Part shown: positions 3,356 through 24,000 of the stretch, one piece after another
Layout: every line of letters begins with the position of its first letter
Position numbering within the stretch: position 1 is the stretch's first letter
DNA from: Bifidobacterium aquikefiricola
GTDB taxonomy: Bacteria; Actinomycetota; Actinomycetes; Actinomycetales; Bifidobacteriaceae
Assembly: GCF_041080795.1 (NCBI RefSeq)
Contig: NZ_CP129674.1
Span: 2,268,629 to 2,292,628, forward strand
Reading direction: 5' to 3'
Length of the DNA: 24,000 bases
The notes under the pieces: generated by a model
Database searches by the model: none
What the model saw: only the letters and a program-made list of their open reading frames with translations
Told to the model about the DNA's origin: nothing
Translations under genes and position numbers: made by a program

Positions 3356-3829
3356 TCGTCCTCCAAAGAATCGGGCACAGCCCATGCACAAAGCAACGTA
3401 TCAATATTCAACAGGCAGACCCTATACAAACCGGCAGTCTTTCCATAGCCAAATGCATGCATCGTCCTTCGGCAGTCCCTTCTGCATGCATCAGCTAGAC
3501 ACACAGCATCTTCTAGACAGCTCCACAGAAGAATGAAGCCCAGCATTGCGAAACGCCGAGAGAAAGCGACACGCCCGTGTCCGCATTCACAGACAGCTGG
3601 CCAAGCGTTTCGGCATCGCAGCAGAAAAGCATCAGGCCGAACGTCGATTTTCCCATATATCAGGCTAATGAGAACCATTACCGATAGCGTCATTTCATCA
3701 ATCTAGATCCTGTCACAGCAAGCAAATTCATTGTTCTCATTCTGATAATTTGCAGAAAAACTTCGTAAATAAGTTAGTAAATTATACTTGATCGGTAATA
3801 TTGCGAACGTGTTTAAAAAATTATCTAAT

Positions 3830-5719
3830 ATGAATAAATTGGTGCGTGCTTGCGTGGCATTGTGCGTGGCATGCGTTGTTGGGTTAACAGGTGGTGCGAT
3901 ATACAATCCTCTGGCTGTTGCAAGTGAAGCGGATGCTCAGGGTTTTTCCCTGCATTCTGGTGAAGGCAGTGATGCGGGTGGCACTCACGTCGCGATACAA
4001 GCTCCTAGGAATGTGAGGTTTACCAGGATTGATACTGGTTCTGATCATTCATTGGCATTGGGCAGCGACGGCAACACCTACGCATGGGGCGACAATGAAT
4101 GTGGTCAGCTGGGCGACGGAACGACCACGAACCGGTCCACACCGGTACGCGTGAAAACCCCCGAAGGCGTGACATTCACCAACATTGATGGCGGTCTGAG
4201 TTTTTCAGTGGCGTTGGGCAGCGACGGCAACACCTACGCATGGGGCGACAATCAATATGATCAGCTGGGCGACGAGACGACCACGAACCACCTCACACCC
4301 ATACGAGTACACACTCCCGCAGGCGTAACATTCACCAGCATTAATGCCGGTTGGTACCACACCTTGGCGTTGGGCAGCGACGGCAACACCTACGCATGGG
4401 GTCTCAATGCATATGGACAGTTGGGCGATGAGACAACAACTAATCGGTCCACACCGCTACGCGTGCACGCTCCCGCCGGAATAAAATTCACCAGCATCAA
4501 AGACGGCTTGGGCCAGTCCTTGGCATTGGGCAGCGACGGCAACACCTACGCATGGGGCCGCAATCAATATGGTCAGCTGGGCGACGGAACGACCACTAAT
4601 AGATCCACACCGGTTCGAGTGAAAACCCCCGAAGGCGTGAGATTCACCAGCATCGATGGCGGTCTGGGCCATTCTGTGGCGTTGGGCAATGACGGGAACA
4701 CATACGCATGGGGCTTTAATTACCGTGGTCAGCTGGGCGATGACACAACCACGAACCAACTCACACCGGTACGAGTACACACTCCTGCAGGCGTAACATT
4801 CACTAACATTCATGCTGGTATGGGTCATACGCTGGCATTGGGCAATGACGGCACCCTGTACGCATGGGGGTGGAATGGATATGGTCAGCTGGGCGACGGC
4901 ACAACCACCAATCGCTATACACCAGTACGCGTGAATACTCCCAAAGGCGTGACATTCACCAGCATCGATGGCGGATATCGTCATTCGTTAGCGTTGGGTA
5001 GTGACGGCAACACCTACGCATGGGGCAGCAATGAATACGGCCCGTTGGGCGATGAAACAACCACCGATCGCTACACACCAGTACGTGTGAGCACTCCCGC
5101 GACGAAGGTTGTGAAAGTGTTGTTTGATGGTGTCGAGGGCAGTAATCTCATGTTTGATCAGGCATCAGGTCAGTGGCAGATCACCACACCAGCGCATACG
5201 CCTGGCACGGCGAACGTGAAGGTGCAGTGGACAGTAAGTGACGTTGCACAGCCGGACGCCTTGTTGTCATATACGTATATCGGCGTGAAGCATCATGTCT
5301 CCTTTGACGCTCAGAGTGGCTCTCAAGTTGATGCTCAGGATGTCGAGCAGGGCAAGACAGTGAACAAGCCAGCTGATCCTACACGTAAGGGTTACAGGTT
5401 TGTGCAGTGGACTAGCGATAAGGCCGGTAAGAACGCCTTTGATTTCAAGACACCCGTCACCGCAGATATCACCTTGTATGCGCAGTGGGTAAGCGTTGCT
5501 GCTTTCGGATCGGTGAATCCCACGACGAATCCCGGTATTTCAAGAACACCTTCTGCTCCGGCAGCTGGCAGCAGCGCCGTGAAGCCTTCTGGTGACACAG
5601 GCAGGAAGAGCGGCAATGCCTTGGCTTCCACCGGGAGCACGATAAGCGCTGTTGCTACTGCAATGCTGCTGTTCAGTGGTATTGGTGCGGCGCTTGTGTG
5701 GCGTCGTTGTCATGCATAA
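3830..5719 (+). CDS. Cell-wall-anchored surface protein: signal peptide, seven RCC1-type repeats (beta-propeller), Ig-like segment, Listeria-Bacteroides (Flg_new-type) repeat, LAxTG sorting signal
   Basis: Signal peptide MNKLVRACVALCVACVVGLTGGAIYNPLAVA/SE. There are seven 52-aa repeats with the RCC1 signature HSLALGSDGNTYAWGxNxYGQLGDGTTTNRxTPVRV. HHVSFDAQSGSQV...GKTVNKPADPTRKGYRFVQWT...ITLYAQW matches the Flg_new repeat pattern. The C-terminus has LASTG (5621-5635), a hydrophobic stretch and RRCHA. An alternative TTG start lies at 3788. Confidence 0.9.
   Translation: MNKLVRACVALCVACVVGLTGGAIYNPLAVASEADAQGFSLHSGEGSDAGGTHVAIQAPRNVRFTRIDTGSDHSLALGSDGNTYAWGDNECGQLGDGTTTNRSTPVRVKTPEGVTFTNIDGGLSFSVALGSDGNTYAWGDNQYDQLGDETTTNHLTPIRVHTPAGVTFTSINAGWYHTLALGSDGNTYAWGLNAYGQLGDETTTNRSTPLRVHAPAGIKFTSIKDGLGQSLALGSDGNTYAWGRNQYGQLGDGTTTNRSTPVRVKTPEGVRFTSIDGGLGHSVALGNDGNTYAWGFNYRGQLGDDTTTNQLTPVRVHTPAGVTFTNIHAGMGHTLALGNDGTLYAWGWNGYGQLGDGTTTNRYTPVRVNTPKGVTFTSIDGGYRHSLALGSDGNTYAWGSNEYGPLGDETTTDRYTPVRVSTPATKVVKVLFDGVEGSNLMFDQASGQWQITTPAHTPGTANVKVQWTVSDVAQPDALLSYTYIGVKHHVSFDAQSGSQVDAQDVEQGKTVNKPADPTRKGYRFVQWTSDKAGKNAFDFKTPVTADITLYAQWVSVAAFGSVNPTTNPGISRTPSAPAAGSSAVKPSGDTGRKSGNALASTGSTISAVATAMLLFSGIGAALVWRRCHA
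4019..5110 (+). repeat. Seven tandem 156-bp coding repeats (RCC1 blades)
   Basis: The units begin at F78 of the 3788 ORF and each is exactly 52 codons. The 33-mer TTGGGCAGCGACGGCAACACCTACGCATGGGG is identical in repeats 1-4 and diverged in repeats 5-7. Confidence 0.85.
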
Positions 5720-10715: not shown

Positions 10716-11636
10716 TCACCGTTCCACCCAGGCCAACAATGCTGGATCCCATTCGAGTGGTGTCGCGGTGTCGCGTGCGTACAGGTTTTCTAACAGTCCT
10801 TGTATCAGGGTGTGTGCTTGCTCTATGGTCATGTCGTCCACTTTGGTTGTCTGTGCGGTTTGATGGAATTGTGCAGGCTTCCAAGATTTAGGTATTGCGA
10901 ATTCGATAGGGTACGGCAGTTGACGTCGGACGCTTTCGCTTCTCAGTGATTCTTCGAGTGTACCGGCTTCGAAGCGTTGTGTGACGACGATGATCGCGAG
11001 GTCGACCAGATCCTTGATACGGCTGGATTCCCTCCCGTTGATCTTCTGCACCACGGCACACACCTTATCGGCGAACTGACAGGTGACCGGGTACAGGCGG
11101 TATGGATAAGTGGTCAGCCTGTCGATTGGCAGGCGGTTGACGGGTGTCAGCACATCGGCCCTGGGCATGGTTCCCTGATGAGCGACGAGGTCCACGTGTA
11201 TCGGATTGAGGAGCTTGACACCAAGACGAGTGTTGAAAACCACCCGCCACCCATCCTGATACGGCTGATTGTCCGCTTGAAGGATCGGCGTCGCGGAAAC
11301 GAATTCAAAGACGAAATGGTCGTGCAGGTCGATATCTGCCAGGCGTTTGAGTTCTTCGAGAGATTCTCGTGCATCGTATCCATTGCTGAACAGGTCCGCA
11401 TCGAGGGTGCGTCGGGTCGAGGGGATGCGGGCGAGCATGGCACTACCTCCTTTGAGTACCCAGGTGCTCTCCTCCCCCTCGCTGAAGACCCTGCTGAGGA
11501 ACCGGTCATAGTGAGCCTGTCTAATGAGGTCGCCTACCAGCCGTTTCGGATGGCGTGCATGCTCGGCTTTCGCGGCGCTTTTGATGGCCGCCTCGACCGC
11601 GATACCAGACGAGTAGGCGTAGGTGTCGTCGGTCAT
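10716..11636 (-). CDS. abiEii: AbiEii/AbiGii-family nucleotidyltransferase toxin (type IV TA / abortive infection)
   Basis: 306 aa. HYDRFLSRVF....WVLKGGSAMLARIPSTRRTLDADLF is the characteristic DUF1814/AbiEii N-terminal NTase motif. A GAAAGGA RBS is present. The gene lies 23 nt downstream of the AbiEi gene. Confidence 0.9.
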   Translation of the reverse strand: MTDDTYAYSSGIAVEAAIKSAAKAEHARHPKRLVGDLIRQAHYDRFLSRVFSEGEESTWVLKGGSAMLARIPSTRRTLDADLFSNGYDARESLEELKRLADIDLHDHFVFEFVSATPILQADNQPYQDGWRVVFNTRLGVKLLNPIHVDLVAHQGTMPRADVLTPVNRLPIDRLTTYPYRLYPVTCQFADKVCAVVQKINGRESSRIKDLVDLAIIVVTQRFEAGTLEESLRSESVRRQLPYPIEFAIPKSWKPAQFHQTAQTTKVDDMTIEQAHTLIQGLLENLYARDTATPLEWDPALLAWVER

Positions 11637-11659
11637 GATGTTGTCCTTTCTTCTGGGAT

Positions 11660-12544
11660 TTACGATTCTTTGGGATCAGCATCGTCTGAAGTGTCGGCGG
11701 GGAAAGTACCGCTGATGCCGGGATTCTCCTTGTCTGATTGCATGCGTTCAACGAACAGTTGCGCGAATTCATGGATCTTCATCAGGGCATTCGCGATAGC
11801 CTCAGCGTTACTGTTTGAGAACGAATCATACGTGAAATTCGTAAGGGACTCGAAGCGGTCACTTAGCACTTGGGCTGCATTCCGGAGCGTTTCACTGATG
11901 CGGTCATCCACCGGTCCCATCAGCTGCGCAACCATCGACTTCCCGTCCTCGGGGGCGAAACCTTGACGTTTCGCCAGCGGTGCCAGTCGTCTGGCGAGCT
12001 TATCCCTGTCCAAATCCCCGGATCGGTGCACAAACTCTTTCAGCAGCATGTTCTGAATCAAGGAAAGGTCTGTTCCTATTTCCACCAGATCGGCCACAGT
12101 CTGTTCGAATATCGTCACCGGCAGACCATTGACTATTCGCACGGACTCGCTGGGATAGCGTCGTGTGCGCAGCTTGAGATCTGCTCTTTGTGTCTGTCGT
12201 CGCCGCGGCGTGGAGAACCGGTAGGGTTCGGGAACGAAATCACCAACCCCGAGCATCCATGCTGCGCTTTCAAGACAGACGATGGCCTCGTCAGGCACGT
12301 CACGCAGACGTGCCTCAGCGGTGCGTTTCGGATCGATGGACAGCCAGGCGGCATGCACGCCCTCGAAAGCGTCAGTCGGCACCCCCGCATCCTTGTATAT
12401 ACCGTGAGCCAAACGCTCGAAGATACCTGACCGTTCCATGCGTGACAGATCGAGTCTCGTCACACCAAGCATCTCGGCTTGCGAGGTCGTCACCATACCC
12501 CACTGGCCTGATGTGAGTGTGGCAAGCTTTGCGACTTTATTCAT
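11660..12544 (-). CDS. abiEi: AbiEi-family antitoxin / transcriptional autoregulator
   Basis: 294 aa. The N-terminal winged-HTH is LATLTSGQWGMVTTSQAEMLGVTRLDLSRMERSGIFERLAHGIYKDAG (AbiEi_4-type). It sits upstream of AbiEii, which is the canonical gene order. Confidence 0.85.
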   Translation of the reverse strand: MNKVAKLATLTSGQWGMVTTSQAEMLGVTRLDLSRMERSGIFERLAHGIYKDAGVPTDAFEGVHAAWLSIDPKRTAEARLRDVPDEAIVCLESAAWMLGVGDFVPEPYRFSTPRRRQTQRADLKLRTRRYPSESVRIVNGLPVTIFEQTVADLVEIGTDLSLIQNMLLKEFVHRSGDLDRDKLARRLAPLAKRQGFAPEDGKSMVAQLMGPVDDRISETLRNAAQVLSDRFESLTNFTYDSFSNSNAEAIANALMKIHEFAQLFVERMQSDKENPGISGTFPADTSDDADPKES

Positions 12545-16406: not shown

Positions 16407-17339
16407 TCAGTCCACATTGATGGTGGCGTAGTGTTGGGCCGCTTCAGCCACCCGATGATTGTAGTCAACAGAGGGATTGTAGGCGCTGATAGCACTGATC
16501 CAGTTCTTGGATTGAGTCAGATTTCCTCCGGTCTTGCACAAATACAAGCCTGCCGCGAGCGCAGCGTCGTCAATCTGGTTGATGTCCTGTTTGCCGTCAC
16601 GGTTGCCATCTTGTGCGGCGCTCTTCCATGTTGCAGGAATGAACTGCATCGGCCCTACCGCGCGATCCCAGGTGGTGTCGCCGTCAATCTCGCCACGATC
16701 CGTATCCGGGGTACGGTTGTTTCCGTTGCCATCGAGGGCCACACCGATGATTGATGGAGCGACCGTCCCGTCTGCATGCAGTGTGGCGTTATTGGTGCTG
16801 CCATGTTCGGTTTCTACCTGACCGATGGCAGCGAGGGTGTTCCATCCCAGTCCGCATGAGGGATGGGTGCGAGACACGGCGATTGACGCTCCTGCATAGG
16901 CTTGCAGCGCGCGTTCGGGAATGCCGGACGATTTGGCGATTTTCGTCACCCATTCCTTGTCTGCAAGTTTCGCAATGGGTATGTTCTCTTGCTCACCGCC
17001 GTTGGCAGTCACATTGGCAGTACCGGATGCCGAGGGTGCTGCGCTGGTTGGCGCTGTTGTTGTAGCTTCCGTGTCCGTAGCTAGCGTGGCGCTGCTGCTT
17101 GCATGCCCTGCAGCGCTTGCCTGACTCTCGTCATTTTCTGGTGCATAAGTTGCGGCGAACAATGCTGCAAGAAGTGCGGCAATCCCCAATAATCCGAGCA
17201 CACTCATGGTCGTTGGCCACGCTAGCCGCCGCCAGGGTATGGCAGCAGAAGTGTGGCGCGCGTTGTCCGGAGTGTACTCCGAGGCATTGGTTTCAGGTGT
17301 CGAAGGGAATAATGGAAAAGGATTCTGTGGATCAGTCAT
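16407..17339 (-). CDS. Membrane-anchored lytic transglycosylase (SLT_2/MltB-like domain)
   Basis: About 310 aa from the ATG at 17339. It has an N-terminal TM segment (MSVLGLLGIAALLAALFAATYA) and an Ala/Thr/Ser-rich linker. The catalytic region reads AAIGQVETEHGS...WDRAVGPMQFIPATWK...DGNRDGKQDINQIDDAALAAGLYLC. The upstream 42 codons of the track ORF overlap the permease gene and are rejected. Confidence 0.8.
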   Translation of the reverse strand: MTDPQNPFPLFPSTPETNASEYTPDNARHTSAAIPWRRLAWPTTMSVLGLLGIAALLAALFAATYAPENDESQASAAGHASSSATLATDTEATTTAPTSAAPSASGTANVTANGGEQENIPIAKLADKEWVTKIAKSSGIPERALQAYAGASIAVSRTHPSCGLGWNTLAAIGQVETEHGSTNNATLHADGTVAPSIIGVALDGNGNNRTPDTDRGEIDGDTTWDRAVGPMQFIPATWKSAAQDGNRDGKQDINQIDDAALAAGLYLCKTGGNLTQSKNWISAISAYNPSVDYNHRVAEAAQHYATINVD

Positions 17340-18360
17340 GGTCAGACCTTCTGGAAATACGATGTGAACGATGTGTGGAACGATGCTCCGATGGAATGGA
17401 TTCGGTAGCACTCTGAGGAGCTTGAACACCTTGAGATATCTGAACACCCTGAGATGCCTGAACACTCTGCGATGCCTGAGCCTGTCTGAGTGTCGCGCGT
17501 GACCTATGTCCGTGTGTCACTGCGCGAATGACAACGCCTTGTTGTGGAGAAAACAGCCACGCGCACAGAAAAACTGCCGTCAACACCAGCACGATGGTGC
17601 CGCCTGTCGGAAAATCCCATGACCACGAAACGTACAGGCCGGTCAGTGCCGAACATGCGCCAATCACCGGAGCCACGACCATCATGATGCCCAGACGGTC
17701 AGTCAGCAGGCGTGCGGTTGCCGCCGGTGTCACCAGCAGAGCGAGCACGAGGATATTACCGATGGTTTGCACGCTTATCACGACCGCAAGCGTGACCAGC
17801 ACGTAGAGAGCCAGATCGAGCCAGAATACCGCGAGTCCTTGTGCCCGTGCGGATTCACGATCCAAGGAGACGGTCACCAATTCCTTGTGAAGAAGGAATA
17901 TGACCAGCAACACCACGAGCGAAGTACCCGCCACAATGTACAGATCCGACTCGGGAATTCCTGTTATCGAGCCGAAGAGGAACTGCTGCAAAGACCCTGC
18001 ATATCCGGGCGATTGGGAGATAATGACAATGCCAAGCGCGAAGGCGGCGACGAACAGGATGCCGATGATGGAATCTTCTTTCAATCGTCGGTTCTGCGAA
18101 AACACGGCGACAAGAATCGCCGTAAGCACTCCGGCGACCGTTCCACCGAGCACGAGGTTGCCGGAAATCACAAATGCGACAGCCAAACCGGGGAATACGG
18201 CATGTGCCACGGCATCACCGATGAACGCCATGCCGCGCAGCACAACGTAGCAGCCCACTACCCCGCACACCATGGAAGACATCACCGCAACCGCTAATGC
18301 CTTGGGTAGGAACGCGAGATTTGGGTTGAACAAATCCATAAAGAAATCAACGGGACTCAT
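17332..18360 (-). CDS. Anchored-repeat-type ABC transporter permease (ZnuB/TroD-like) with a hydrophilic C-terminal extension
   Basis: MSPVDFFMDLFNPNLAFLPKALAVAVM...FIGDAVAHAVFPGLAVAF is typical of metal (Zn/Mn/Fe) ABC-3 permeases. The start at 18360 forms an ATGA overlap with the ATPase stop. The last roughly 60 aa are non-membrane, with (QxSQGV)n repeats and a His/Arg-rich tail. Confidence 0.9.
   Translation of the reverse strand: MSPVDFFMDLFNPNLAFLPKALAVAVMSSMVCGVVGCYVVLRGMAFIGDAVAHAVFPGLAVAFVISGNLVLGGTVAGVLTAILVAVFSQNRRLKEDSIIGILFVAAFALGIVIISQSPGYAGSLQQFLFGSITGIPESDLYIVAGTSLVVLLVIFLLHKELVTVSLDRESARAQGLAVFWLDLALYVLVTLAVVISVQTIGNILVLALLVTPAATARLLTDRLGIMMVVAPVIGACSALTGLYVSWSWDFPTGGTIVLVLTAVFLCAWLFSPQQGVVIRAVTHGHRSRATLRQAQASQSVQASQGVQISQGVQAPQSATESIPSEHRSTHRSHRISRRSDHD
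17422..17475. repeat. 18-bp tandem repeat, three good copies plus degenerate flanking copies, inside the permease 3' end
   Basis: TTGAACACCTTGAGATAT / CTGAACACCCTGAGATGC / CTGAACACTCTGCGATGC, followed by the degenerate CTGAGCCTGTCTGAGTGT (17476-17493). On the minus strand this encodes QASQSV-QASQGV-QISQGV-QAPQSA. Confidence 0.75.
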
Positions 18361-19190
18361 GCGACCGCCTTCACCATGCGCAGCAATGCGGAGTCGCGCC
18401 CCACACCGAAGGTCGTCGTCCACGCATCAGGGTTCGATACCAATGCGGATGGGGTTCCGGCTGCGATAATCGTCGAATTCAGCAATGCCAGACGGTCAGC
18501 GCCTCCTATCGCACCAACAAGGTCATGCGTGGTCATCAACACGGCATGGCCTTCATGCGCGATATCGCGAAACAGACCGGCAAGCAGCTCTTGGGTCGGC
18601 ATATCAAGTCCCGTATAAGGTTCATCCAGCAGCAGCACCGAAGGTTGCAGGGCGAGGGCGCGTGCCACCAGCACCCGCTGGCGTTGCCCGCCGGAAAGCT
18701 GACCTACCGGCCTGTCTGCAAGCGCCGTCATGCGCACACGATCAAGGGCATCAGCGACAGCTTCCCAAACGGCCGCATCAGGACGTTTGAACAACCCCAA
18801 TTTTCCACACAGTCCTGTCGCCACCACGTTGGCAACGGAAATCGGAAAATCCCAGGCGAACTCGTGGCGTTGGGGAACATAGCCGATGGCGGCACGCCCA
18901 GGCTTGGCACTTCTCCCATCGACGAGCACCCGCCCGAACGCGGCACGCTGCAAACCGAGAACGGTACGCAACAATGTGGTTTTGCCCGCACCATTCGGTC
19001 CTATCAGCGCGAGCAGCTCACCCCGCTCAACGCTAAGGTTGACAGATTGCAGCACGCATCTGCCACCAAGTTCAACCGTCACATCGTCAAGACGCAGCGC
19101 GGCATGTGCATTGGCATGTGTTTTATTGTGTGCGGCAGGAAGCGATGCGGCCTGCGCTGTGGGGAATGCTGTATCCGTTGCTGCACTCAT
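18357..19190 (-). CDS. Anchored-repeat-type ABC transporter ATP-binding subunit (ZnuC/TroB-like)
   Basis: Walker A GPNGAGKTT, signature LSGGQRQRV, Walker B LLLDEPYTGLD, H-loop TTHD. An ATGA overlap joins it to the upstream gene at 19187-19190. Confidence 0.9.
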   Translation of the reverse strand: MSAATDTAFPTAQAASLPAAHNKTHANAHAALRLDDVTVELGGRCVLQSVNLSVERGELLALIGPNGAGKTTLLRTVLGLQRAAFGRVLVDGRSAKPGRAAIGYVPQRHEFAWDFPISVANVVATGLCGKLGLFKRPDAAVWEAVADALDRVRMTALADRPVGQLSGGQRQRVLVARALALQPSVLLLDEPYTGLDMPTQELLAGLFRDIAHEGHAVLMTTHDLVGAIGGADRLALLNSTIIAAGTPSALVSNPDAWTTTFGVGRDSALLRMVKAVA

Positions 19191-20296
19191 ATGCCACCAC
19201 CAACGCTTTGGTCGCCACCTGTTTCCGCCTCACTCTCGGCTTTGCGCCTTCGATCGTCGAGAATACGGCGTTTGGCCTTGTTTCCGCGCACTATCACCAC
19301 GGTGAAACCTGCAACCAAGGCAATGAATACCACGATGATGGCTCCAATAAGCACGGCAACCAGCGCAGTGTTTGCAGGGGCACTGCCCTCCTGCCCGCTT
19401 TGTCCCGTAGCAGCCGAGCCACCGCTTTTGGTCTTGTCAGCACTGCCGTCAGCGCTCTCGTTGCCGCTAGCACCGCCACTGGCATCTGAGGAACCGGCAT
19501 GGTCGGATTTTGCGGCGCTACTCCCCTGCCACTGTTGGGCGAATGCCTGATCTGCCGTGGTTGCCGTGCCCACTGCGAAGCGAATGTGCTGAGTGTCCGT
19601 CACATGGCTGCCGTCACGCAGCTCAGCTTCGGCGGTAAGTTCAACGAGATACACGCCGGGTTGCGTGAACACCCAGTTCGCGTGCGTATGCGTGTTGACA
19701 TCCACCCAGATGGGCTGGGATTCGCTCTTGCGTGAATCCCACAACACTTGCGGCTCGCCAAAGGAGCCCGACTGCAGATAGGTCGTCATGATGCCCGGCC
19801 CCTGCACCCCCGTCAGCGACAGAGTGATGCCGCGTTCGATGGTGTTCATCACCTCGGGGTCTTGCGTATTCCACCCTATCCACACCACTTCGGGATTCTG
19901 CGTCTGCGGCACCACGTACACGTCACTGCCAGCCGCAGCACCCACAAACGAATAGGCAGGGTCTTCAGGAACGGCGAGTTTCGCCGCGTCGAGCACATGG
20001 AACACCGTTTCGTCGGGATAGCGCCACACGCTGGTGGCATTCGCGTCAGCCTTGGCCACATCATCGTGAATGAGGAAACGCCAAACCCCCTGGTCATATT
20101 TCGGTCCCATATCAATATGCCCGGTGACCAGTTCACGCTGACCGTGGACGATGGCAAGCTCGCCTATCGTCTGGTTCAGATTCGGGTCTTCACCATCCTC
20201 GGCGTATGCCAAAGCCGGTATGCCAAGAGCTGCAAGGCTGGTGAGAGTGGCCAGCAGCGCTGCAATACGACGTCGAAATGGATGCAGGTTCATCAT
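19187..20296 (-). CDS. Membrane-anchored surface protein with one actinobacterial anchored-repeat domain (TIGR03769-type / choice-of-anchor-M-like)
   Basis: Signal peptide MMNLHPFRRRIAALLATLTSLAALGIPALAYA. The domain motifs are GHIDMG, VYVVPQTQ, VWIGWNTQ, GPG and HTHANWVF. A Gly/Ser/Asp-rich linker follows, then a C-terminal TM segment (LVAVLIGAIIVVFIALVAGFTVVIV) and a basic cytoplasmic tail. No LPXTG motif is present. Confidence 0.8.
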   Translation of the reverse strand: MMNLHPFRRRIAALLATLTSLAALGIPALAYAEDGEDPNLNQTIGELAIVHGQRELVTGHIDMGPKYDQGVWRFLIHDDVAKADANATSVWRYPDETVFHVLDAAKLAVPEDPAYSFVGAAAGSDVYVVPQTQNPEVVWIGWNTQDPEVMNTIERGITLSLTGVQGPGIMTTYLQSGSFGEPQVLWDSRKSESQPIWVDVNTHTHANWVFTQPGVYLVELTAEAELRDGSHVTDTQHIRFAVGTATTADQAFAQQWQGSSAAKSDHAGSSDASGGASGNESADGSADKTKSGGSAATGQSGQEGSAPANTALVAVLIGAIIVVFIALVAGFTVVIVRGNKAKRRILDDRRRKAESEAETGGDQSVGGGI

Positions 20297-21984
20297 GAAG
20301 TTTTCCTATCTGTCGAATCGGTGAGGCATTCATTGAGGCTGTCGGCGTTGAATCGCAGCATCTGCTCGTAGCTGTTGACCTCATTGGAGAAGGTGTCGCC
20401 ATATATCGGGCACACGCGAATGCCTTCATCATTGGCAACCTGTTGCAAGGTTGATGATCTGCTGGCAAGGTTCGGTTCAAGAAACACAGCGGGCACTTGC
20501 AGGGAGCGGATGGTTTCGACCAGTTTGCGCCGGTCCGCCAGCGAAGGCTCCGTAGCAGGGTTGGGAGTGACGAATCCGGCAACGGAAAGACCATATGCAT
20601 GGGCAAGATATCCGAAAGCATCATGAGTGGTCACCAGATACCGTCCCTGCTGAGGAATCTTGGCGAGTGCCGCCGACATGTAGTCATCCGTCGCTTCCAA
20701 GGTTTTCAGATACGCTTCGGCATGTGCCACGTATTGAGCGGTATGAGCTGGGTCAGCGCCGATAAGCGTGTCTCGTATGAGCTGCACATAGGCCATGCCG
20801 TTGCGAGCGTTCTGCCACAAATGCGGGTCAATCTCGCCATGTACATGCTTGCCGAGTACGGCTTGCGCGAGCTGATACACATGCTGTCCAGGACGGCCAA
20901 GGAAGGCGTATTGAGATCCTTTGGGAATTTCCGCCAACGCTTTGGCTGGCACATCCACAACGACCTGACTTGCCGGATATGCTTGCTGGGAGTGTTCGCC
21001 TCCGCCACCCGGATCGTAGCGAACTTCCAAGGCTGCCGAGTCAAGGTTCGCGGTCAAATCGGCATGCCCTTTGTCGAGTATCACCGGGTTCTTGATTCCA
21101 GTCTGCTTGGCAGCCTGAGTGGGGTTCACCCCCACGGCGAAGGTGTATGTTGCATGCCCCAAAGCCACGGGTTTGGCGGTATCGCTCACTTTGAGCTTGG
21201 CTTGCAGGTCGATGGTGTACACGCCTGGCTTGGTGAAGGCCCACGATAGATGCGTATGCGCGTCCGCAGGCAGCGACATGGTGTCGTCGCGATACCCCTG
21301 TGCCGCGTCAAAACCGTCGGAGGAGTCAAAATAGCGTTCCGTATTGCCAAAGGAACCCGTCAAATATGCGAATATATCGCCCGGGCCAGTGGCGTTCGTG
21401 GCAGAGAGCAGCACTTCGGAGGTGCGGGTTGCACCGTAGCGTTCCCCGCTGCCATGCGCCCGCAATCCAAGCCACACGGTGTCAAGGTTGACGTTCTCCA
21501 CTAAGGGAATGATCTCGGCAGCGTATTTCACCGCTTCCTCAGCCAGAGACACGTTGATGGCATCTGAACGCAGGTTAGCATCAAGGGTTTTAATCACCGA
21601 CTGTTCTTCCAACATTGCATAATTGGAAAATGCGACATCGGCATAGACGACATTTCGGGCGTCTCGCAATGTTGGCTCATAGGAATGTGGATCGCTGTTA
21701 TCAGGTATGAGGGATACGGCATCTACATAATCACCGCCGACGTGTTCGACCATGTCCCGCAAAATCCCCGTCGTGGTGACCACCCGTAACCGTTCGCTAT
21801 GCGCGGGCAAGGCTGGTCTGGCGGCGCACCCTGATACCAGCAGCACGCCACACAGCACACCCACCGTTGTCATCCACCGTGCGGCATATCGCACAGCAGC
21901 ACAACGCGCAGCACAACGCACGACTGACCGCATCGCACACCGGACGACCGACCGCACGTCAACTGTTATGGCCGTGTTCGCCAT
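20293..21984 (-). CDS. Anchored-repeat ABC transporter substrate-binding lipoprotein: ZnuA/TroA-like cluster A-I SBP with an inserted repeat domain of about 220 aa
   Basis: Lipobox LLVSGC. The SBP metal-ligand motifs are SDPHSYEP, EIDPHLW, VTTHDAFGY and PIYGDTF. An insert between the first two motifs (about 20839-21492) carries VWLGL, GPG, HTHLSWAF and GHAD. The start is uncertain: 21984 is the longest option and overlaps the upstream gene by 19 nt. ATG 21933 and ATG 21873 (MTTVGVLCGVLLVSGC, a typical lipoprotein signal) are alternatives. Confidence 0.85.
   Translation of the reverse strand: MANTAITVDVRSVVRCAMRSVVRCAARCAAVRYAARWMTTVGVLCGVLLVSGCAARPALPAHSERLRVVTTTGILRDMVEHVGGDYVDAVSLIPDNSDPHSYEPTLRDARNVVYADVAFSNYAMLEEQSVIKTLDANLRSDAINVSLAEEAVKYAAEIIPLVENVNLDTVWLGLRAHGSGERYGATRTSEVLLSATNATGPGDIFAYLTGSFGNTERYFDSSDGFDAAQGYRDDTMSLPADAHTHLSWAFTKPGVYTIDLQAKLKVSDTAKPVALGHATYTFAVGVNPTQAAKQTGIKNPVILDKGHADLTANLDSAALEVRYDPGGGGEHSQQAYPASQVVVDVPAKALAEIPKGSQYAFLGRPGQHVYQLAQAVLGKHVHGEIDPHLWQNARNGMAYVQLIRDTLIGADPAHTAQYVAHAEAYLKTLEATDDYMSAALAKIPQQGRYLVTTHDAFGYLAHAYGLSVAGFVTPNPATEPSLADRRKLVETIRSLQVPAVFLEPNLASRSSTLQQVANDEGIRVCPIYGDTFSNEVNSYEQMLRFNADSLNECLTDSTDRKTS
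21896..21955. repeat. Compound tandem repeat at the SBP 5' end / intergenic junction
   Basis: GCAGCACAACGC is perfectly duplicated in tandem (21896-21907 and 21908-21919). ACGACTGACCGC (21920-21931) and ACGACCGACCGC (21944-21955) recur at 24-bp spacing. If translated, the region gives RSVVRCAM-RSVVRCAA-RCAA. Confidence 0.7.
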
Positions 21985-24000
21985 GCCAATGACCCGTTGC
22001 GCTTACCCATCCACCACAGCACGCCCGCACCCGCAGCACCGCTGAGCAGCAGTAGCCCGAGTATCGTCAGCAGCAGTGGCACAGGATTGCCTTCTGTCAG
22101 TGCAGCCAAAGGACCGGCACCTTTTGCCCGAGGACCTTGTGCTGCATCAACGCGCTCGTCGGCCTGCTCGGTGTCATCGGCTTCGCCAGCAAGTGCGGAA
22201 GCCTGATCTGCCGCCTTTAATGCCGCTTCTTCTGCGAGTTTCTTGGCCCTTGCAGTACCGGCATCATCGGCGGTGAACACGAGTCGAGCTTGCGATGCTG
22301 TGTTGCAATCCGTCGTGGAGCTCATGGCCGATGCGGGGTCAACCGCACCCACCACAATCGTGAGGGTTTCAGTATCCGAAGATGTCTGACCGTTAGCAAG
22401 CGTGGCGGTCTGCGTCATCGAAATCCGGTATATGCCTTCCCTGCTGAACGCCCAGTTCGCATGTGCGTGAACGCCAAGAGGAATCCTGTAGCTGCCTGCG
22501 CCGTTGAATACCATCTGCTGCACTCCGCCGAACGCGCCAGCCAAATACACCTTCATTGACCCTGGACCATTCACCGAGTTGATGGTCCACGTAACCGGCC
22601 CGCGAGCGTTACCAGCATTCAGCGATTCCGTATTCCATCCCAGCCAAATAAGATTCGCTTGCTGCGTCTGCGGAATCTGCCACACACGCGAACCTGCCGC
22701 ACCAATCTGCCCATAACCATTCGGCAATGTCACGACACTGGAGGGCTTCAGCCACAGAATCGTCCCCGCTGGCTCACGGTAAACCTTGGTTCCTGATGTG
22801 TCATCACCAATCAACGATTGCAAACTGCCATTGACGATGCGTGACGAGTAATCCACATGCCCAGAAGACAGCACCGTTGCGCCAACCACACACTGGCGTG
22901 CCGCCAACGTTGTGACAGGAGGAGTATTGTCACCAGACGTTAGCTGATCCTTCGGAGCATTCGGCACCGATGGAGGCGTAACGACCTTGACCTCACTCCA
23001 CCCGATCAGGCTGCCGCCCTCGGATCTCACTTCAATGCGGTGCTCTCCCACAGGAGTATCTTTTGGCACTCGGAAACTCGCCACATGCTGAGCATCAACC
23101 GTCTGCTTGCCGAGGTTTGTAGGCGTTGAGTGCAGCCATCCGGTAACATCTTTGCCCGCATATCCTTGCGGCAACTGCACACGAAGTAGCTGGCCGGGAT
23201 AGAATCCCTGCGCGCCATCAAGCACACGCAGACCGCCTCTATTGGCATCCGTCAACTCCTCGGTTGGCGTGGTATCCCCATCCGGTGCAGGCTGTTCATC
23301 CTGTCCGGTGAAGCAGTTGGCCGGGTCGGCTTGCATCACGTCGGCATGACCCACGGCCACGGCCAACACAAACGGGCTGGTAACCCGAGCACCGGAAGCC
23401 AGGGTCGTGGCACGTTCAAACGCCAAGCAATACGAACCCTCAGCACTAAACGCCCACGAACCATGAGCATGCGTGTTCTTAGGAATCGTGAACCTATCAG
23501 CATCAGACACGCCATCACGCGTATTAAACAGCACCTCAGGCTGACCAAATATGCCAAGCTGGTACAGCGCGAACTCGCCCGGACCAGACACGTTTGTCAA
23601 ACGCCAATCCACGCCATTCGTCGCGTTCAAGGTAATCGACTCAGTTGACCAACCCGGCCACAACAACCCGGCCTGCTGGGTCTGCGTGACCTGATAGAAC
23701 TGCGAACCCGCATTACCAAGGAACGACCACTGGCTACCAGACGGCACCTGAGCCTGAGCGCCAGGCAACAACTGCAACACCGTCTTCGTAGGATCACGCC
23801 ATGTCTCAGAACCGCTGGTGGTGTCCTTCACCTGAGTCACCAGACGATTACCATCAAGCAGCGAAGCAATGTCAACATGCCCATCATTCAACACCGTCGC
23901 ACCAGCAGCATTCACCGTCCCGTTAGCAACATTCCACACAGGCTGCGGCACAGGAACACCGGAATCATCGTCACCGCCAGAGCCATCACCCGCATCACCC
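21966..24000 (-). CDS. ABC transporter-associated surface repeat protein (TIGR03773-like): two anchored-repeat domains flanking an Ig-like segment, with a C-terminal membrane anchor; 5' end beyond the right edge
   Basis: The reading frame stays open to the window edge (...GDAGDGSGGDDDSGVPVPQPVWN...). Domain copies lie at about 23349-23903 (GHVDIA, YQVTQTQ, LWPGWST, GPG, HAHGSWAF) and about 22347-22883 (GHVDYS, WQIPQTQ, IWLGWNTE, GPG, HAHANWAF). The tail reads PLAALTEGNPVPLLLTILGLLLLSGAAGAGVLWWMGKRNG, that is, hydrophobic plus basic with no canonical LPXTG. Confidence 0.85.
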   Translation of the reverse strand, partial: GDAGDGSGGDDDSGVPVPQPVWNVANGTVNAAGATVLNDGHVDIASLLDGNRLVTQVKDTTSGSETWRDPTKTVLQLLPGAQAQVPSGSQWSFLGNAGSQFYQVTQTQQAGLLWPGWSTESITLNATNGVDWRLTNVSGPGEFALYQLGIFGQPEVLFNTRDGVSDADRFTIPKNTHAHGSWAFSAEGSYCLAFERATTLASGARVTSPFVLAVAVGHADVMQADPANCFTGQDEQPAPDGDTTPTEELTDANRGGLRVLDGAQGFYPGQLLRVQLPQGYAGKDVTGWLHSTPTNLGKQTVDAQHVASFRVPKDTPVGEHRIEVRSEGGSLIGWSEVKVVTPPSVPNAPKDQLTSGDNTPPVTTLAARQCVVGATVLSSGHVDYSSRIVNGSLQSLIGDDTSGTKVYREPAGTILWLKPSSVVTLPNGYGQIGAAGSRVWQIPQTQQANLIWLGWNTESLNAGNARGPVTWTINSVNGPGSMKVYLAGAFGGVQQMVFNGAGSYRIPLGVHAHANWAFSREGIYRISMTQTATLANGQTSSDTETLTIVVGAVDPASAMSSTTDCNTASQARLVFTADDAGTARAKKLAEEAALKAADQASALAGEADDTEQADERVDAAQGPRAKGAGPLAALTEGNPVPLLLTILGLLLLSGAAGAGVLWWMGKRNGSLAWRTRP

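Follow-up and report, generated by a model that had tools for sequence, protein, structure and literature searches.

Sequence comparisons place a circularly permuted HxD/HxH domain at the His-rich-loop site of a ZnuA-type substrate-binding protein in Bifidobacterium aquikefiricola

What occupies the place of the His-rich loop in the substrate-binding protein (SBP) of an anchored-repeat zinc importer, and where did it come from? The question is raised by a 24,000-nucleotide (nt) stretch of Bifidobacterium aquikefiricola (contig NZ_CP129674.1, positions 2,268,629 to 2,292,628; the whole stretch is hereafter called the window). In its right third, the genes of an anchored-repeat zinc ATP-binding cassette (ABC) importer operon form one string on the minus strand, encoding a two-domain surface protein, the SBP, a one-domain membrane protein, an ATPase and a permease. 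The initial annotation of the window had noticed that the SBP carries the two halves of the surface proteins' repeated domain in reversed order, between its first and second metal-ligand motifs, and had proposed that this permuted domain functionally replaces the His-rich loop of ZnuA. On the sequence and profile comparisons given below, the insert is one copy of the HxD/HxH domain, a beta domain of roughly 190 residues, with its halves swapped, that is, a whole-domain circular permutation. We consider it likely that the SBP is a ZnuA-type lipoprotein in which the permuted domain, derived from a frame of a tandem array, sits at the His-rich-loop site and serves in accessory zinc capture and hand-off.

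The SBP open reading frame (ORF) is divided as follows (amino acids, aa, are numbered along the 563-aa ORF, unless mature numbering is indicated; HMM, hidden Markov model; EcZnuA, Escherichia coli ZnuA):

20293..21984, minus strand: SBP ORF, 563 aa; TIGR03772 at 709.4 bits (cutoff 350.45) and PF01297 in two stretches.
21505..21801, minus strand (aa 62-160): host N-lobe segment with the first metal ligand in SDPH(100)SYEP; aligned to PsaA 12-93, the host N-lobe HMM covering aa 62-158.
21127..21504, minus strand (aa 161-286): insert part 1, matching the surface-domain C-half, with VWLGL, GPG, H243-T-H245 (nt 21250-21258) and FAVG; E 9.8e-18; strands predicted within 134-247 (mature).
21082..21126, minus strand (aa 287-301, 15 aa): linker from the original C-terminus to the original N-terminus; short helix predicted at 251-257 (mature).
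20860..21081, minus strand (aa 302-375): insert part 2, matching the surface-domain N-half, with G-H307-A-D309 (nt 21058-21069) and VYQLAQ; E 9.6e-9; strands predicted within 264-335 (mature).
20815..20859, minus strand (aa 376-390): return to the host, AVLGKHVHGEIDPHLW, with the HxH stub H380, H382 and the second ligand H388; placed by alignment to EcZnuA 134-143.
20320..20814, minus strand (aa 391-555): host C-terminal part with the ligands H454 (TTHDAF) and D530 (YGDTF), placed by alignment; H417 and D493 in mature numbering, both invariant.

The coordinates first given for the insert, 20839-21492 on the minus strand, correspond to SBP aa 165-382, and the boundaries obtained with the domain HMM (aa 161-375, nt 20860-21504) are slightly wider on the 5' side. 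All the motifs quoted in the initial annotation are present in the SBP. Each half proved homologous to its counterpart in the free domains. In BLASTP comparisons, SBP 158-294 matched the C-half of the domain of the 369-aa membrane-anchored protein (E 6e-12), SBP 159-260 and 188-278 matched the two C-halves of the 661-aa surface protein (E 2e-10 and 2e-11), and SBP 302-374 matched the N-half of domain 1 of the latter (E 6e-8). Profiles built from 120 SBP homologues and from 120 homologues of the one-domain protein were compared with hhalign: SBP 160-290 aligned with the surface C-half (E 9.8e-18) and SBP 296-380 with the surface N-half (E 9.6e-9), and the crossed controls were negative (E 0.36 and 0.37). 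The alignment of a self-concatenated profile is the standard test for circular permutation. Here, the doubled insert profile gave a single colinear alignment of 184 columns with the whole surface domain (E 7.2e-21), with a score of 145 against 109 for the undoubled profile. The two halves are complementary, covering domain-HMM positions 87-202 and 13-90, so that each is present once, in swapped order.

Curated models agree with this picture. NF038134 (choice-of-anchor M) matched the SBP in two stretches with 98.6 bits (cutoff 55), and TIGR03769 reached 49.7 bits (cutoff 30.9), with both H243-x-H245 and H307-x-D309 present. These four residues (H243, H245, H307 and D309) are invariant in 75 homologues, and about 60 insert residues are invariant in all, both halves of the metal motif included.

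The same order appears in the predicted structures. AlphaFold2 modelled the domain of the one-domain protein as all-beta, with a predicted local distance difference test score (pLDDT) of 89.5 and a predicted template modelling score of 0.86. Its N-half comprises eight elements (strands 25-27, 30-39, 42-50, 61-63, 68-72 and 77-79, helix 84-89, strand 96-100) and its C-half nine (strand 109-113, helix 118-123, strands 127-136, 141-145, 154-158, 165-170, 178-181, 185-197 and 202-213). The AlphaFold model of the SBP had an overall pLDDT of 78.4 and values of 86-98 in the insert. In mature numbering, the insert opens with strands 134-140, 153-162, 167-172, 178-183, 198-202, 206-213, 217-228 and 236-247. 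The linker helix 251-257 follows, and then come strands 264-266, 270-276, 281-287, 297-300, 304-308 and 313-315, helix 320-325 and strand 331-335. The predicted elements are thus those of the C-half followed by those of the N-half, corresponding one-to-one with the free domain in swapped order. Fold equivalence of the insert and the free domain would rest on the order of these predicted elements, on the confidence scores and on motif conservation.

The new termini of the permuted domain lie in the loop between the native QTQ strand and the WxGW strand. Being produced by a cut in this loop, they are neighbours by construction and suited to insertion in a host loop. Sequence and profile searches of the PDB returned no solved relative of the domain, and a Foldseek search of the free domain against the PDB gave nothing convincing, the best matches being PAD N-terminal domains (E 1.4e-3, template modelling (TM) score 0.32).

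The SBP is a full-length match to its family model. SBP aa 68-555 cover positions 2-486 of the 486 positions of TIGR03772, and PF01297 (ZnuA) matches with 219 bits, split in two stretches. The primary site, aligned to PsaA and ZnuA, consists of H100, H388, H454 and D530, all four invariant in the 75 homologues. Judged from these residues, the ligand set is of the zinc type (three His and one Asp), a His3-Asp set as in TroA and AztC-type proteins. Foldseek comparison of the host part with the solved cluster A-I SBPs MtsA, YfeA, MntC, AztC and PsaA gave TM scores of 0.68-0.78, normalised to the target. With targets of some 275 residues, these alignments stretch over about 500 columns, so the insert is a single excursion of about 220 residues, and the model retains the two-lobe cluster A-I fold, with its long connecting helix, around a gap of about 220 columns.

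Where the insert enters the host was approached from both sides. On the C side, a local phmmer alignment placed SBP 379-388 (KHVHGEIDPH) on EcZnuA 134-143 (DHHHGDFNMH), a stretch that closes the His-rich loop and includes the second ligand, His143; the E. coli sequence was checked against PDB 2ogw. On the N side, the PsaA alignment reaches SBP aa 126 and PsaA 129 pairs with SBP 378, leaving 34 residues in the SBP (127-160) and 35 in PsaA (94-128). This match in length puts the insert 161-375 directly in the loop preceding the second ligand. By these alignments and lengths, the insert position in the host is that of the ZnuA His-rich loop, between the first and second metal-ligand motifs, where the initial annotation had located it. 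In a global MAFFT E-INS-i alignment of the two proteins, residues of EcZnuA were scattered over the insert, and this alignment was set aside; the host N-lobe HMM could be aligned with EcZnuA no further than residue 76.

Between the insert and the second ligand stands an invariant K-H-V-H-G-E stub (window positions 20839-20859, SBP aa 376-382). Its two histidines and the second ligand (H380, H382 and H388, or H343, H345 and H351 in mature numbering) are invariant in the homologues, and the position of the former pair, between the insert and H388, means that a small piece of the His-rich loop survives. The pLDDT falls below 50 at mature residues 339-348. Going by the model, the segment with H380 and H382 is probably flexible, and the stub may be a residual flexible zinc tether.

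Two observations concern other parts of the SBP. Beyond the first ligand, the greater part of the host N-lobe (aa 105-166, window positions 21486-21672) is nearly invariant in the family, yet cannot be aligned to ZnuA, and its pLDDT is below 50; this stretch may have been remodelled around the insert. At the 5' end of the ORF, the homologues are 510-535 aa long, so the real start is probably M38 (nt 21873) or M18, to judge from the sequences, followed by a lipobox LVSGC. Window positions 21896-21958 hold short DNA tandem repeats (periods of 12 and 24 nt, about 2-3.5 copies) that encode an RSVVRCA-type repeat upstream of M38. Going by the homologue lengths, these positions may be a leader or non-coding, and not part of the protein.

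The permuted order is a property of the whole family. Among 121 close homologues, 116 had the C-then-N order under relaxed thresholds; the other five had the same order with weaker matches, and none contradicted it. When 1.84 billion cluster representatives were scanned in full by HMMER with the insert as query, 1188 proteins reached E <= 1e-3, and the best 150 of these were typed with separate half-domain and host HMMs. Among these best 150 of 1188, all 43 complete SBP-type representatives at 50% clustering had the architecture host-C-N-host with junctions conserved on both sides, and none was host-N-C-host. Their inserts are 37-52% identical, and the median gap between the C and N parts in SBPs is 9 aa between HMM ends. 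The uniform order across the family indicates that the permutation is ancient and fixed, and it is consistent with a single insertion event.

Two kinds of apparent exception were rejected. "C-C" and "N-N" architectures in some SBP representatives were split matches of one half, since complementary HMM coordinates rule out extra halves. Short "C-N only" proteins, considered as free permuted domains, turned out to be fragmentary or frameshifted SBPs in which host residues are retained.

How could such an order arise? Among the same best 150 matches, the non-SBP proteins were surface proteins carrying two to seven copies of the N-C unit in tandem. Along one protein with six domains, five C(i)-N(i+1) frames in succession were colinear with the insert (query 25-216), with E from 1e-12 to 2e-22, and at the end of the array the insert aligned with the C-half only. 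This colinearity identifies the permuted order as a half-domain register shift of a tandem array, and such a shift is the prediction of the "permutation by duplication" route. Classical cases of circular permutation by duplication are C2 domains, swaposins and GH70 compared with GH13. As in those cases, the halves are swapped with respect to the homologues and tandem arrays offering the intermediate register exist. Unlike them, the SBP copy is nested in a loop of another domain, and unpermuted paralogues are encoded beside it in the operon; in some species both forms share one polypeptide. The most likely origin, judged from the matches, is a C(i)-N(i+1) frame of a multi-domain surface protein placed in the SBP by one ancient insertion. 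The direction of transfer would be from array to SBP, because ordinary cluster A-I SBPs lack the insert.

Natural in-frame fusions of the SBP with an unpermuted domain were found in the proteins P0252 and P0270, joined by Gly/Ser/Pro linkers, lacking an internal signal peptide and ending in a C-terminal transmembrane anchor; permuted and unpermuted copies thus occur within one polypeptide. These two fusions are complete. The sequences of P0247 and P0344, with the linker composition Gly/Ser/Pro/Ala, stop within the unpermuted domain, and in a protein of 1948 aa surface repeats are fused upstream of the SBP.

The points bearing on function are the invariant HxH and HxD motifs, the placement of the insert beside the primary site, and the in-frame fusions. 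The insert appears to keep the HxD/HxH zinc site, as the conserved residues suggest. It would act as a built-in accessory zinc-capture module beside the primary site, taking the role of the His-rich loop, and zinc bound on it would pass via the H380/H382 tether to the primary site. In ZnuA and AztC, it is the flexible His-containing loop through which zinc is taken over from ZinT and AztD, respectively (PMC6689063). By analogy, it is reasonable to suppose that the insert functionally replaces the loop, as had been proposed for this SBP.

The insert would in turn be supplied with zinc by its homologues on the membrane and wall proteins (ZnuE-like and ZnuF-like). We put forward only tentatively, and with more doubt than confidence, the resulting homotypic relay, in which zinc would move from the wall to the membrane-anchored protein, then to the SBP insert as a built-in chaperone made from a half-shifted array frame, and finally to the primary site. 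If true, this would be a metal-relay design not previously described for cluster A-I transporters.

Work on related clusters supplies the background. The homologous cluster dip0438-0445 of Corynebacterium diphtheriae is repressed by zinc and Zur (PMC6711530), and the Gardnerella operon is among the genes most induced in genital-tract medium (PMC11979175). Peng, Lyman and Schmitt (2025) renamed the C. diphtheriae cluster znuAECB/znuF-445; there, ZnuE is required for growth in low zinc, ZnuE, ZnuF and ZnuG show zinc-dependent thermal shifts, and conserved His residues are needed for the function of ZnuE and ZnuG in growth assays (PMC12445094).

Several points weigh against our interpretation of the SBP. 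The C. diphtheriae His-to-Ala mutants kept zinc-dependent thermal shifts, and the phenotype of the znuA mutant is only weak (PMC12445094). Within the SBP, the N-side junction is set by length consistency and without a significant alignment, the model is weak at host residues 67-129 (mature numbering), and the HxH stub persists at the loop base, so the old loop is incompletely replaced.

The permuted domain, although folded, might be mainly a protein-protein docking or regulatory element, recognising ZnuE/ZnuF-type proteins or the wall, or gating the SBP at high zinc, instead of relaying zinc. In favour of such a role, zinc binding in vitro by the paralogues through HxD/HxH is inconclusive, ZnuF and ZnuG modulate zinc import and do not simply promote it (PMC12445094), and the natural SBP::domain fusions amount to physical association. 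We judge it unlikely, since the insert keeps the His and Asp residues of the motif without variation, ZnuE and ZnuG depend on their conserved His residues in vivo (PMC12445094), and the insert lies beside the primary site, at the zinc-transfer loop of ZnuA/AztC. The insert might otherwise be two partial fragments of tandem repeats that form no compact domain, a decayed remnant or a flexible spacer, and its colinearity with the C(i)-N(i+1) frames of tandem arrays would fit this. Such fragments are improbable given that the two pieces are exactly complementary (HMM positions 87-202 and 13-90), that each secondary-structure element is present once and the insert pLDDT is 86-98, that about 60 residues are invariant, with both halves of the metal motif among them, and that the architecture and junctions are kept in 43/43 divergent representatives. 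The initial annotation had named this outcome as one that would speak against it, together with halves unrelated to those of the surface proteins, and neither is what the data favour. A chance or low-complexity similarity, or an artefact of alignment, could be suspected from the weak match of the N-half to the HMM of the 369-aa type alone (median i-Evalue 0.002). This is effectively refuted by the BLAST match to 661-aa domain 1 (E 6e-8), the hhalign match with its two negative crossed controls, the NF038134 score above the curated cutoff, and the identical predicted secondary structure.

The preferred reading, an accessory zinc-capture domain at the loop site, can be set beside known systems. 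The SBP is an ordinary member of a named and partly characterised family, and no new system is involved. C. diphtheriae ZnuA (DIP0438, formerly "TroA"; znuAECB/znuF-445; Peng and Schmitt 2019; Peng, Lyman and Schmitt 2025) belongs to the same NCBIfam family, and the gene order of znuAECB is the one found here (SBP, one-domain membrane protein, ATPase, permease). Both clusters have paralogous HxD/HxH surface proteins; in both SBPs HxH precedes HxD and the primary site contains three His. The two differ in that the HxH-HxD spacing is 61 aa in the present SBP and 45 in C. diphtheriae ZnuA, and in that the present operon has the two-domain protein upstream in the same gene string. The nearest named relatives, at about 78% identity, are metagenome-assembled genomes of Bifidobacteriaceae and Propionibacteriaceae.

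The SBP shares the cluster A-I fold with E. coli and Salmonella ZnuA and with Paracoccus denitrificans AztC, which also have an accessory zinc element directly before the second ligand His. Their element is a disordered His/Asp-rich peptide of 15-35 residues that receives zinc from the partner ZinT or AztD (PMC6689063), whereas the present SBP has a folded beta domain of about 215 residues and a short HxH stub. Streptococcal AdcA (ZnuA-like plus ZinT-like) and AdcAII with PhtD are likewise zinc SBPs aided by a zinc module in cis or by surface proteins with histidine motifs. In AdcA, however, the module has an unrelated lipocalin-like fold, is fused at the C-terminus and is unpermuted, and the Pht proteins carry HxxHxH triads and are not homologous to the present domain.

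The HxD/HxH motifs of C. diphtheriae ZnuA were described as "in reverse order" (PMC12445094). The swapped motif order was thus already published in 2025, as motifs, without a domain insertion, a circular permutation or an insertion site. No paper containing the phrase "circular permutation" came up in a text search of the literature that combined it with ZnuA, "substrate-binding protein" and Actinobacteria. What the present analysis adds is that, by sequence and profile comparison, the reversal is a whole-domain circular permutation, located at the His-rich-loop site, universal in the family and matching a register shift of tandem arrays. It makes a clean natural case of a domain both permuted and nested, with unpermuted paralogues in the operon and arrays that show the likely intermediate. 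It also offers a concrete role, open to testing, for the "reverse-order" motif that had gone unexplained in the ZnuA proteins of C. diphtheriae and its relatives (Gardnerella, Cutibacterium and Trueperella), and singles out H243, H245, H307, D309 and the H380/H382 stub for mutation.

NCBIfam assigns the operon genes at equivalog level to the "anchored repeat" ABC transporter set. The four partners of the SBP (TIGR03770, TIGR03771 and TIGR03773/TIGR03769) are adjacent, on the same strand and each above its cutoff:

21966..24000, continuing beyond the window end, minus strand: surface protein with two unpermuted HxD/HxH domains (TIGR03773; ZnuF-like); TIGR03773 at 462.6 bits, cutoff 190.
23340-23894, minus strand: domain 1 of the 661-aa protein (aa ~20-204), in the architecture N-C-N-C.
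22350-22889, minus strand: domain 2 of the 661-aa protein (aa ~355-534), in the same N-C-N-C architecture.
19187..20296, minus strand: 369-aa membrane-anchored protein with one unpermuted domain (choice-of-anchor M; ZnuE-like); NF038134 at 199 bits, architecture N-C.
18357..19190, minus strand: ABC ATPase (TIGR03771), 332 bits, cutoff 269.
17332..18423, minus strand: ABC permease (TIGR03770; ABC-3 family), 465 bits, cutoff 297.

In the 369-aa protein, whose start codon overlaps the SBP stop codon, the domain occupies aa 56-242 (nt 19571-20131). The 661-aa protein has a C-terminal transmembrane helix and a basic tail. No in-frame stop lies ahead of the listed GTG at 23951, and the codons at 23952-24000 (minus strand) encode a Gly/Asp/Ser-rich linker, GDAGDGSGGDDDSGVP, so the real surface protein is longer than 661 aa. 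Beyond the window lie its signal peptide, the promoter of the operon and any domains that it may have in addition. A search for Zur-box-like palindromes in the window gave one chance-level match only, far from the operon.

Inspected by eye, both surface proteins lack a canonical LPXTG sortase signal (window positions 19187-19330 and 21966-22110). Both end in a transmembrane helix and a basic tail, as do ZnuE and ZnuF of C. diphtheriae, in which wall localisation is sortase-independent. Directly downstream of the permease, and overlapping the 3' end of its ORF, a 352-aa protein with a C-terminal SLT-type transglycosylase domain is encoded at 16407-17465 (minus strand).

Farther away in the window, positions 10716-12544 (minus strand) hold an AbiEii toxin/AbiEi antitoxin gene pair (type IV toxin-antitoxin system). 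At 3788-5719 (plus strand) a 643-aa protein is encoded that has seven RCC1 repeats (beta-propeller) followed by a Listeria-Bacteroides repeat domain, and that is probably secreted or surface-located.

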